In this document: positions 29,286 to 29,465 of the stretch, piece after piece
How the letters are laid out: each line of letters begins with the position of its first letter
Numbering within the stretch: the stretch's first letter is position 1
Source: Candidatus Eiseniibacteriota bacterium
GTDB lineage: Bacteria > ARS69
Assembly (NCBI GenBank): GCA_052390515.1
Contig: JBQTGV010000124.1
Coordinates: 1 to 47,509 of the forward strand
Direction: 5' to 3'
DNA: 47,509 nucleotides
Made by a program: the position numbers and the translations under genes
Notes under the pieces: generated by a model
The model's input: the letters and a program-made list of their open reading frames with translations, nothing else
Databases searched by the model: none
What the model was told of the DNA's origin: nothing

Positions 29286-29360
29286 CTACCAGTCGTTGCG
29301 GCCGCCGCCAAACGCGCCCAGGAGCGCGCCCACGAGGACGCCAACCCAAACCGTAATCAA
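29286..29360 (-). CDS. Unannotated 24-aa hydrophobic peptide MITVWVGVLVGALLGAFGGGRNDW
   Basis: AAGGGAG RBS 8 nt before TTG, TAG stop, followed by terminator; hydrophobic GxxxG-repeat core; below ORF-track size cut-off (alternative in-frame GTG at 29378 gives 30 aa). Confidence 0.7.
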   Translation of the reverse strand: MITVWVGVLVGALLGAFGGGRNDW

Positions 29361-29465
29361 ATCAGTCTCTCCCTTCACATGAAATCTCACTCGCAACCGC
29401 TGGCGAGTGGATCCGCTGCGCTCGGGAGTCCGCTCTCCTTGTCACCGGGCTCCGCTCGGGCCCCG

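Follow-up and report, generated by a model that had tools for sequence, protein, structure and literature searches.

The window analysed here, a 47,509-nucleotide (nt) stretch of DNA forming positions 1 to 47,509 of contig JBQTGV010000124.1 (assembly GCA_052390515.1) of a Candidatus Eiseniibacteriota bacterium, carries on its minus strand a compact unit. In it, a gene that we call X (29466..30152) is followed by a structured leader RNA, a very short open reading frame (ORF; 29286..29360) and a gene for a membrane phosphodiesterase with MASE9 and HD-GYP domains (27619..29103). The short frame, hereafter the micro-ORF, has a TTG start, 24 codons and a TAG stop, and it encodes a hydrophobic helix that ends in an invariant C-terminal GGRNDW. 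From the comparison of related sequences we conclude that the micro-ORF is a genuine gene whose protein sequence is under purifying selection. Judged in the same way, the whole unit of gene X, leader RNA, micro-ORF and MASE9 HD-GYP gene is found again in metagenomic lineages whose GC content spans 31-70%.

On the minus strand, AAGGGAG is followed, after an 8-nt gap, by TTG at 29360..29358, 23 more codons and TAG at 29288..29286. An earlier interpretation made from the letters of this DNA (the sequence-only reading) had claimed a 24-residue ORF with this Shine-Dalgarno (SD) sequence, start and stop, and with glycines at positions 7, 11, 15 and 19 of the peptide, and we read it exactly so. The SD core GGGAG (29369..29373) is unchanged in 12 of 12 relatives. 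A mechanical ORF list holds the same frame as a 36-residue ORF from an upstream TTG (29286..29396); the start at 29360 is supported by the aligned start codons and SD sequences of 11 relatives. The DNA of the window is 70% GC and 61 ORFs of at least 20 residues overlap positions 26000..33000, and the length of the micro-ORF alone is not beyond chance in such DNA. It stands out from chance because it is conserved. Neither its 24-residue nor its 36-residue form has an entry in a collection of 15 billion proteins, and the claim that it is unannotated therefore holds.

The phylum is represented in the genome collection by 12 genomes of one family and eight genera, in which we traced relatives of the peptide by DNA patterns and synteny. 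The codon pattern for GGRNDW and a stop has exactly one match in each of the 12 genomes, and its reversed control has 0. All 12 matches end an ORF of 22-26 codons with a hydrophobic body and an SD, directly after an X ortholog and always at the same syntenic position. In the alignment of these peptides the start and the last six residues are the only invariant columns. Within the six terminal codons, all first and second positions are invariant and the variable sites are all third positions, with the codons for Arg and for the second Gly using all four third bases. Length differences among these micro-ORFs amount to whole codons. The ratio of nonsynonymous to synonymous variation (pN/pS) is 0.44 for the 24-residue members of the phylum and 0.13-0.29 in four sets of equal-length ORFs from three other lineage groups. 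The sequence-only reading had staked its case on conservation of the frame, the ribosome-binding site and the terminal Trp, all three of which are kept in 12 of 12 relatives, and on a bias towards synonymous change, which the third-position pattern and the pN/pS range of 0.13-0.44 bear out.

A scan of the full species-level genome collection for an SD, a start and a GGRNDW-stop ending returned 12 stretches, comprising 10 phylum relatives, one 2.1-kb contig and one chance match that is not hydrophobic. The exact GGRNDW form is therefore specific to the phylum. The 2.1-kb contig (L031) carries a Phycisphaerales-bin label and its micro-ORF stretch is identical to that of genomes G001 and G008; it is probably mis-binned. 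In a DNA search of 41 genomes, the intergenic stretch was matched in 6 of the family's 11 other genomes. One of these matches, L007 in genome G004, turned out to be a chance match inside another gene and was rejected; the true G004 copy was found by the GGRNDW-stop pattern.

The glycine zipper that the sequence-only reading saw in the peptide did not withstand comparison. The GxxxG spacing, with four glycines at i, i+4, i+8 and i+12, occurs in the window copy only and is absent from the other 10 distinct orthologs, and the Pfam glycine-zipper models stay below their cut-offs (PF13488, Gly-zipper_Omp, 16.2 bits against 25; PF05433, 14.1 against 24.2). More generally, Pfam and NCBIfam searches with the window peptide and 10 distant peptides gave sub-threshold noise only, and NCBIfam gave no match for the window peptide.

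The choice of stop codons is also distinctive. Long coding-like ORFs of the window genome end in TGA in 991 cases (69%), in TAG in 387 and in TAA in 49. The 12 micro-ORFs of the phylum have TAA three times, TAG nine times and TGA never, while 55 distinct metagenome micro-ORFs, introduced below, have TAA 40, TAG 14 and TGA 1; within the subset of these from GC-rich loci the numbers are 13, 6 and 1. High expression or a role linked to termination are possible reasons for this avoidance of TGA.

Beyond the phylum, loci were collected with an alignment of protein X (A3) alone, the peptide being left unused. From 556 relatives found, 80 metagenome loci were fetched, with 27-41% identity to X (L032, at 62%, is the exception) and a locus GC content of 30-69%. 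A micro-ORF lies downstream of X, at the same distance, in 67 of the 80: 59 were called by a fixed rule that asks for hydrophobicity, the right position and, close to the end, an aromatic or aliphatic residue, and 8 by eye. All 59 rule-called ORFs have a strong SD at proper spacing. The 8 by-eye cases comprise four tails without Trp, one 43-residue variant and three 38-residue variants with long tails. Five further loci are cut by the contig end, three of which still show the leader and the first codons, and the remaining eight have no micro-ORF (L033, L036-L039, L097, L099 and L102).

The members of this wider family share a common plan. A short and often basic N-terminus leads into a hydrophobic helix; one or two small residues come next, often as LAGGA, and the peptide closes with a 3-6-residue tail that includes a basic residue and Trp. 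Of 55 distinct ORFs, 48 have Trp as the last or second-to-last residue. Overall length ranges from 16 to 43 codons, the N-terminal part varying in both sequence and length, and the apolar stretch measures about 17 residues in the window and most lineages and about 10, with acidic residues, in some. The long-tail variants at L052, L062, L108 and L101 (38 residues with a proline-rich tail, or 43 residues) stand behind a leader that is recognised by the covariance model R1 described below.

A separate sample of 389 genomes from other bacterial families contains protein X in 28. Eighteen loci from this sample divide into 8 with both micro-ORF and HD-GYP gene, 7 with neither, 1 that is ambiguous, 1 cut by the contig end and 1 with N bases. 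Some of these micro-ORFs have only 16-20 residues, with acidic residues and GKSGW-like endings. At the locus with N bases (L138, genome G076) a leader with tandem AGCG and an SD precedes the masked micro-ORF site, and the genome holds four further partial X matches. Distant forms of 31-42 residues do occur in public gene calls, labelled only 'hypothetical' or 'unnamed'. Neither the peptide nor the leader nor X turned out to be described in Pfam, NCBIfam, Rfam, PADLOC (which returned generic HD similarity only) or the searchable literature; supplements of small-protein catalogues could list them.

With the window HD-GYP protein as query, tblastn finds an ortholog after the micro-ORF in nearly every locus with room for it, and the alignments span the MASE9 part. 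Co-occurrence was tabulated for those metagenome loci in which at least 1200 nt follow X (59 loci, 21 shorter ones being excluded): the micro-ORF and the HD-GYP gene are both present in 53, the micro-ORF without the HD-GYP gene in 0, the HD-GYP gene without the micro-ORF in 2, and neither in 4, a table that is descriptive and not a test. The tie to the downstream HD-GYP gene that the sequence-only reading had drawn is thus strong (53 of 53 loci that have a micro-ORF and are long enough). In sum, its coding micro-ORF and its HD-GYP link survive, and its glycine zipper does not. Its two ideas on function, a C-terminal pheromone set free from a precursor or a helix packed against the MASE9 sensor, are weighed below as candidate readings.

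Within the phylum the HD-GYP gene adjoins the micro-ORF in 10 of 12 genomes, and in other lineages it comes within about 50-100 nt of it. The two remaining genomes, G001 and G008 of genus g2, have the ortholog (80% identity) 4.5 kb further on. Between it and the micropeptide gene they carry a feoB-like gene on the opposite strand (in G001, 2252..4483 of locus L151 on the plus strand, with Pfam Gate and FeoB_C domains), and the peptide is unchanged. That it stays unchanged despite this intervening gene argues for an action in trans. In another relative (L018, genome G002) the HD-GYP match at 1792..3017 is split at query residues 175/186, where a frameshift or an assembly error is possible.

Three further parts of the locus went unmentioned in the sequence-only reading, namely the structured leader, a long-range helix that flanks the unit, and the conserved upstream gene X. 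The leader occupies about 105 nt (29361..29465) between the X stop codon and the micro-ORF start. Its hallmark in all lineages is a region of AGCG repeats (29413..29434; AGCGG at 29434..29430 and a tandem at 29422..29413). The leader also has an anti-SD, CUCCC (29424..29428), predicted to pair with the SD in both the consensus fold and the minimum free energy (MFE) fold, and a hairpin, P2 (29388..29409), with 7-bp arms and AGCGG in its loop. In the phylum alignment A1, RNAalifold pairs the invariant CUCCC with the invariant GGGAG and finds compensatory changes in the hairpin; the anti-SD:SD pairing itself shows no covariation because both of its sides are invariant. The core of the leader in distant lineages consists of tandem AGCG(A/G) pentamers 55-75 nt before the start, a hairpin with a (U/G)AGCGG loop, a purine-rich joint and the SD.

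Support for P2 comes from covariation across lineages. In alignment A5, which holds 26 leaders from three lineage groups, all five hairpin pairs have double changes. Pairing extends to 95.4% of cells, compared with 72.2% in shuffles, and the covariation score of 0.84 (shuffles, 0.33) was reached by 0 of 500 shuffles; slid controls give 0.09-0.29. Counting both strands, the 80 loci (688 kb) contain the tandem AGCG motif 72 times, where simple arithmetic leads one to expect about 3. Covariance model R1, built from A5, has a single significant match in the window genome (29358..29425, E 7e-7; the next best has E 0.4). It places the leader before the micro-ORF in 25 of 38 further loci (E up to 1), misses six loci with a micro-ORF (L034, L041, L103, L105, L107 and L017), and has no match in the seven searched loci without one. 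Likewise, all eight loci without a micro-ORF lack the tandem AGCG repeat. Rfam 15 has no match to the leader in the window (E up to 10) or in 13 distant loci (E up to 1). The repetition of AGCG motifs in loops and single strands suggests a sequence-specific reader.

Protein X has 228 residues, with a small N-terminal alpha/beta domain and a C-terminal regulatory domain of the type found in LeuA and citramalate synthase. It has no match in Pfam or NCBIfam, its 56 close homologs are all 'hypothetical' and without Pfam domains, and a profile search added 285 more distant homologs, among whose named organisms are Desulfosporosinus, Peptococcaceae, Actinobacteria and Chloroflexota. The nearest clusters in the Protein Atlas are unnamed hypothetical proteins and serve as leads only. 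In the AlphaFold model of X (mean predicted local distance difference test score, pLDDT, 86.9), residues 88-210 match the regulatory domain of citramalate/isopropylmalate synthase (VIA Z 8.7, root-mean-square deviation 3.3, 109 residues), and Foldseek relates the same domain to LeuA with E 9e-6. Residues 2-75 form a common small alpha/beta domain whose best match has Z 9.3 and stands among many unrelated ones; Foldseek also gives weak matches of X to the folds of double-stranded RNA-binding domains and of ribosomal protein S5. By its model, X looks like a ligand-binding regulatory protein without a catalytic domain, and its LeuA-type regulatory domain suggests the binding of a small metabolite.

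The flanks of the micro-ORF can also pair with each other. Most lineages have two complementary segments, one shortly after the X stop and the other 4-36 nt past the micro-ORF stop and often succeeded by a U-tract; the sequences of these arms differ between lineages while their complementarity is kept. In 48 of 67 distinct loci the longest contiguous helix reaches a z of at least 3 relative to shuffled controls, with a median z of 5.2. In the window this helix, P0, has its 5' arm in the last codons of gene X (29478..29489) and its 3' arm 18 nt past the micro-ORF stop (29258..29268), the two pairing with a one-base bulge. The phylum scores are not significant on their own, and the partners, in the helix search and in short-window duplexes, are always the last X codons and the stretch 13-31 nt past the ORF stop. 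An MFE fold of 29492..29255 holds P0, the anti-SD:SD pairing and the hairpin together, with an unremarkable energy (z = -1.14).

Contigs from RNA libraries cover 29277..29471, strand not given, in three metatranscriptome runs from three studies, each containing small shares of the stretch; such assembled contigs show neither strand, level nor true ends, and DNA may occur in RNA libraries. Run X11 contributes a 188-nt contig that lies whole on 29277..29464 with 3 differences, run X14 contigs on 29278..29396 and 29367..29471, and run X9 contigs on 29282..29385 and 29356..29465. On the X side the contigs end at 29464-29471 without loose ends, while a DNA contig (X2, 29384..29631) continues, which weakly hints at the RNA ending close to the X stop codon. 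No DNA contig is seen to continue past the lower-coordinate ends (29277-29282), so these give no such hint. Other contigs of X11 and X14 match only the end of the ORF and the leader core, with about 111 other letters between, and we take them to be orthologous units of relatives in the same libraries. The flanking genes have little or no contig cover in these libraries, an uncovered part being no evidence and the depths being unable to rank genes.

Past the micro-ORF lies an intrinsic terminator (29210..29245) with an 11-bp GC stem, a 6-nt loop and a U-rich tail, and most relatives have a terminator here. At L009, L016, L018 and L032 the terminator loop again reads AGCGA, a motif as in the leader. 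Downstream of it a conserved block (29152..29180), with TTGATT, 17 nt and GATACG, is kept in most relatives and may be the promoter of the HD-GYP gene, going by its sequence; a consensus promoter scan reported none at its threshold. After the HD-GYP gene the same strand carries purM, and an ORF of glycosyltransferase size lies on the opposite strand. Upstream of X, two low-GC metagenome loci have a full raiA RNA motif at about 0.9 kb (RF03072, 170-173 bits; L058 1406..1622 and L067 1482..1685), and three have sub-threshold matches to the cspA thermoregulator model (44-74 bits against 78; L035 1301..1641, L063 140..547 and L087 1..396).

Considering these results, we tentatively favour, as the likeliest single reading, a peptide that targets the MASE9 sensor in trans at the membrane and whose synthesis the leader gates. 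The peptide would form a short hydrophobic or amphipathic helix whose basic-x-x-Trp tail sits at the membrane interface. There it may bind the MASE9 sensor, which lies within the membrane as part of the neighbouring HD-GYP enzyme, and thereby tune the hydrolysis of cyclic di-GMP (c-di-GMP), in a mode that we liken to that of small membrane-protein modulators of sensors. Its synthesis would be controlled at translation initiation, the leader opening or closing around the SD, and protein X may serve as the reader of the AGCG repeats. The paper that defined MASE9 describes eight membrane segments of which two are too short to cross the bilayer, together with poorly conserved periplasmic loops, and suggests that ligands bind within the membrane.

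Several points weigh against this proposal. The co-occurrence counts overstate the independence of the loci because these are phylogenetically related, and two loci have the HD-GYP gene and X without the peptide. A complex prediction for the MASE9 domain and the peptide (alignments A4 and A2) gave no answer, its score of 0.09 speaking neither for nor against binding. The acidic peptides of 16-20 residues in some lineages fit neither a classical signal peptide nor a full transmembrane span, and since some peptides are too short to span the membrane, a transmembrane role cannot be the common denominator. The N-terminus of the phylum peptides lacks the basic residues seen elsewhere. Moreover, the best-conserved part is the C-terminus at the stop codon, where TGA is almost never used, and this conserved end and stop bias also fit a cis-acting or highly expressed leader peptide. 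We infer the role of X from its adjacency and its modelled fold, with weak matches to RNA-binding folds, and the RNA contigs cannot prove transcription, strand or ends.

Among known small proteins, MgrB (with PhoQ), SafA and MzrA of E. coli resemble the peptide in having fewer than 50 residues and one hydrophobic helix, in being missed by annotation and in the proposed action on the membrane part of a signalling enzyme. Their targets are histidine kinases, and they are not known as fixed neighbours of these targets across phyla. Our peptide, in contrast, is a near-obligate neighbour of a MASE9 HD-GYP gene, has a dedicated structured leader, is sometimes too short for the bilayer and bears no sequence relation to them. 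The micro-subunits KdpF and CydX are alike in their length of about 25-37 residues, their single helix and their place in the operon of their partner. However, they stabilise transporters or oxidases and have no known regulatory leader RNA, whereas here the putative partner is a signalling enzyme and translation of the peptide would be under a control of its own.

A more elaborate version of our preferred reading joins all elements into a three-part module, and we consider it rather unlikely. X would sense a metabolite, read the AGCG RNA and set the translation of the peptide, which would be the intramembrane ligand of MASE9 that switches the HD-GYP enzyme. Excision between the P0 arms, at the 3' end of the X transcript, would release the peptide message as an RNA of its own, about 190 nt long.

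Instead of acting in trans, the peptide may be a cis-acting regulatory leader peptide, whose translation, or regulated termination at basic-x-x-Trp-stop, would control how the surrounding RNA (helix P0, terminator) is folded, processed or terminated and, through this, the expression of the unit, the released peptide having no job of its own. This would account for the strong conservation of the last six residues before the stop, with Trp in the last two positions of 48 of 55, next to an N-terminal part that is variable in peptides of 16 to 43 residues. The avoidance of TGA would suit it as well, as would the P0 3' arm and U-tract that begin 4-36 nt past the stop in many lineages. However, hydrophobicity is kept across lineages of 31-70% GC, which a peptide acting in the ribosomal tunnel does not need, and the terminator of the phylum, about 40 nt past the stop, is too far for masking by the ribosome. 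In G001 and G008, moreover, the opposite-strand gene that follows an unchanged peptide leaves no downstream gene for regulation by read-through. The leader peptides TnaC and SpeFL, on which ribosomes stall at the stop codon, share with the micro-ORF a length of 24-34 codons, conserved residues near the stop and a variable N-terminus, and they regulate the next gene in cis via Rho or attenuation. In our loci the micro-ORF can instead be followed by a terminator, by a separate putative promoter or even by a gene on the opposite strand, and the hydrophobic character of its product is kept. We regard a cis-acting leader peptide as rather unlikely.

We also think it unlikely that the peptide is a signal-peptide-like precursor, in which an export signal would be cleaved after the small residues and the C-terminal tail (in the window, the last four residues) would be a pheromone sensed from outside by the MASE9 HD-GYP protein. 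Many members do have the basic N-terminus, hydrophobic core, small-residue motif (LAGGA) and basic/aromatic tail of such a precursor, the 38- and 43-residue variants resemble a signal peptide with a small-x-small site and a tail of 17-24 residues, and the sensor gene adjoins. Yet the N-terminus is uncharged in the phylum, position -3 is often Arg, Gln or Trp, and the variants of 16-20 residues, with acidic residues in a core of about 10, cannot be signal peptides. Neither an exporter, a processing protease nor an RRNPP-type receptor is present among the scanned neighbours. The poor conservation of the MASE9 periplasmic loops, as described in the defining paper, also counts against an outside signal. 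The streptococcal pheromones SHP and ComS (XIP) are similar in their 17-25 residues, basic N-terminus, hydrophobic core, aromatic C-terminal end and receptor-adjacent gene. They depend, however, on an Rgg/ComR receptor, the Eep protease and the PptAB exporter, none of which is adjacent here; the gene next to our peptide encodes a membrane phosphodiesterase, and the carriers belong to lineages that range from 31 to 70% GC.

A type I toxin-like membrane peptide, whose mRNA would be silenced by 5'-3' pairing and SD occlusion and activated by processing, strikes us as distinctly improbable. The small hydrophobic peptide with its basic/aromatic tail, the capacity of the SD to pair with the anti-SD, the long-range helix that joins the flanks of the unit and the RNA-library contigs that cover it all recall such systems. 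The mRNAs of hok, ldr and aapA1, like RNAIII/hld and SgrS/SgrT, likewise combine a tiny hydrophobic ORF with a structured RNA, 5'-3' pairing and SD occlusion. Type I toxins typically have a patchy and mobile distribution, often in several copies. The micro-ORF, on the contrary, is single-copy at a fixed syntenic site in every genome and conserved over several lineages of 31-70% GC. No antitoxin or antisense RNA gene was seen, without a dedicated search for one, PADLOC gave nothing beyond generic HD similarity and no Rfam family matches.

It is very improbable that the micro-ORF encodes the precursor of a ribosomally synthesised and post-translationally modified peptide (RiPP), with modifications on its aromatic and basic residues at the C-terminus. 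Many members of the family have aromatic-x-aromatic tails and one distant member matches an NCBIfam RiPP precursor model, but at 13.5 bits against a cut-off of 35. No maturase-type gene (radical SAM, P450, YcaO or peptidase) adjoins among the scanned neighbours, and the tail motif differs between lineages. Hardly credible, finally, is a functional small RNA with an incidental ORF: the leader is structured and conserved and RNA-library contigs cover the stretch, but the third-position variation under invariant amino acids, the whole-codon insertions and deletions, the SD and start kept in every lineage and a pN/pS well below 1 speak for a translated product. The remaining probability lies with functions beyond the readings considered here.

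Membrane sensor domains of the MASE type head many c-di-GMP enzymes, and we know of no natural ligand for any of them. A peptide gene that travels with a MASE9 HD-GYP gene through lineages of 31-70% GC is a concrete candidate for answering the ligand question for MASE9. Besides the peptide, the locus adds a structured leader that is not in Rfam, with its tandem AGCG and covarying hairpin, and an uncharacterised protein family, X. If the three-part module were true, the peptide would be the first natural ligand of a MASE-type domain and the leader would represent a new class of cis-regulatory RNA. Altogether, this family illustrates that conservation over large distances does not keep a gene of 16-31 codons from going unannotated.

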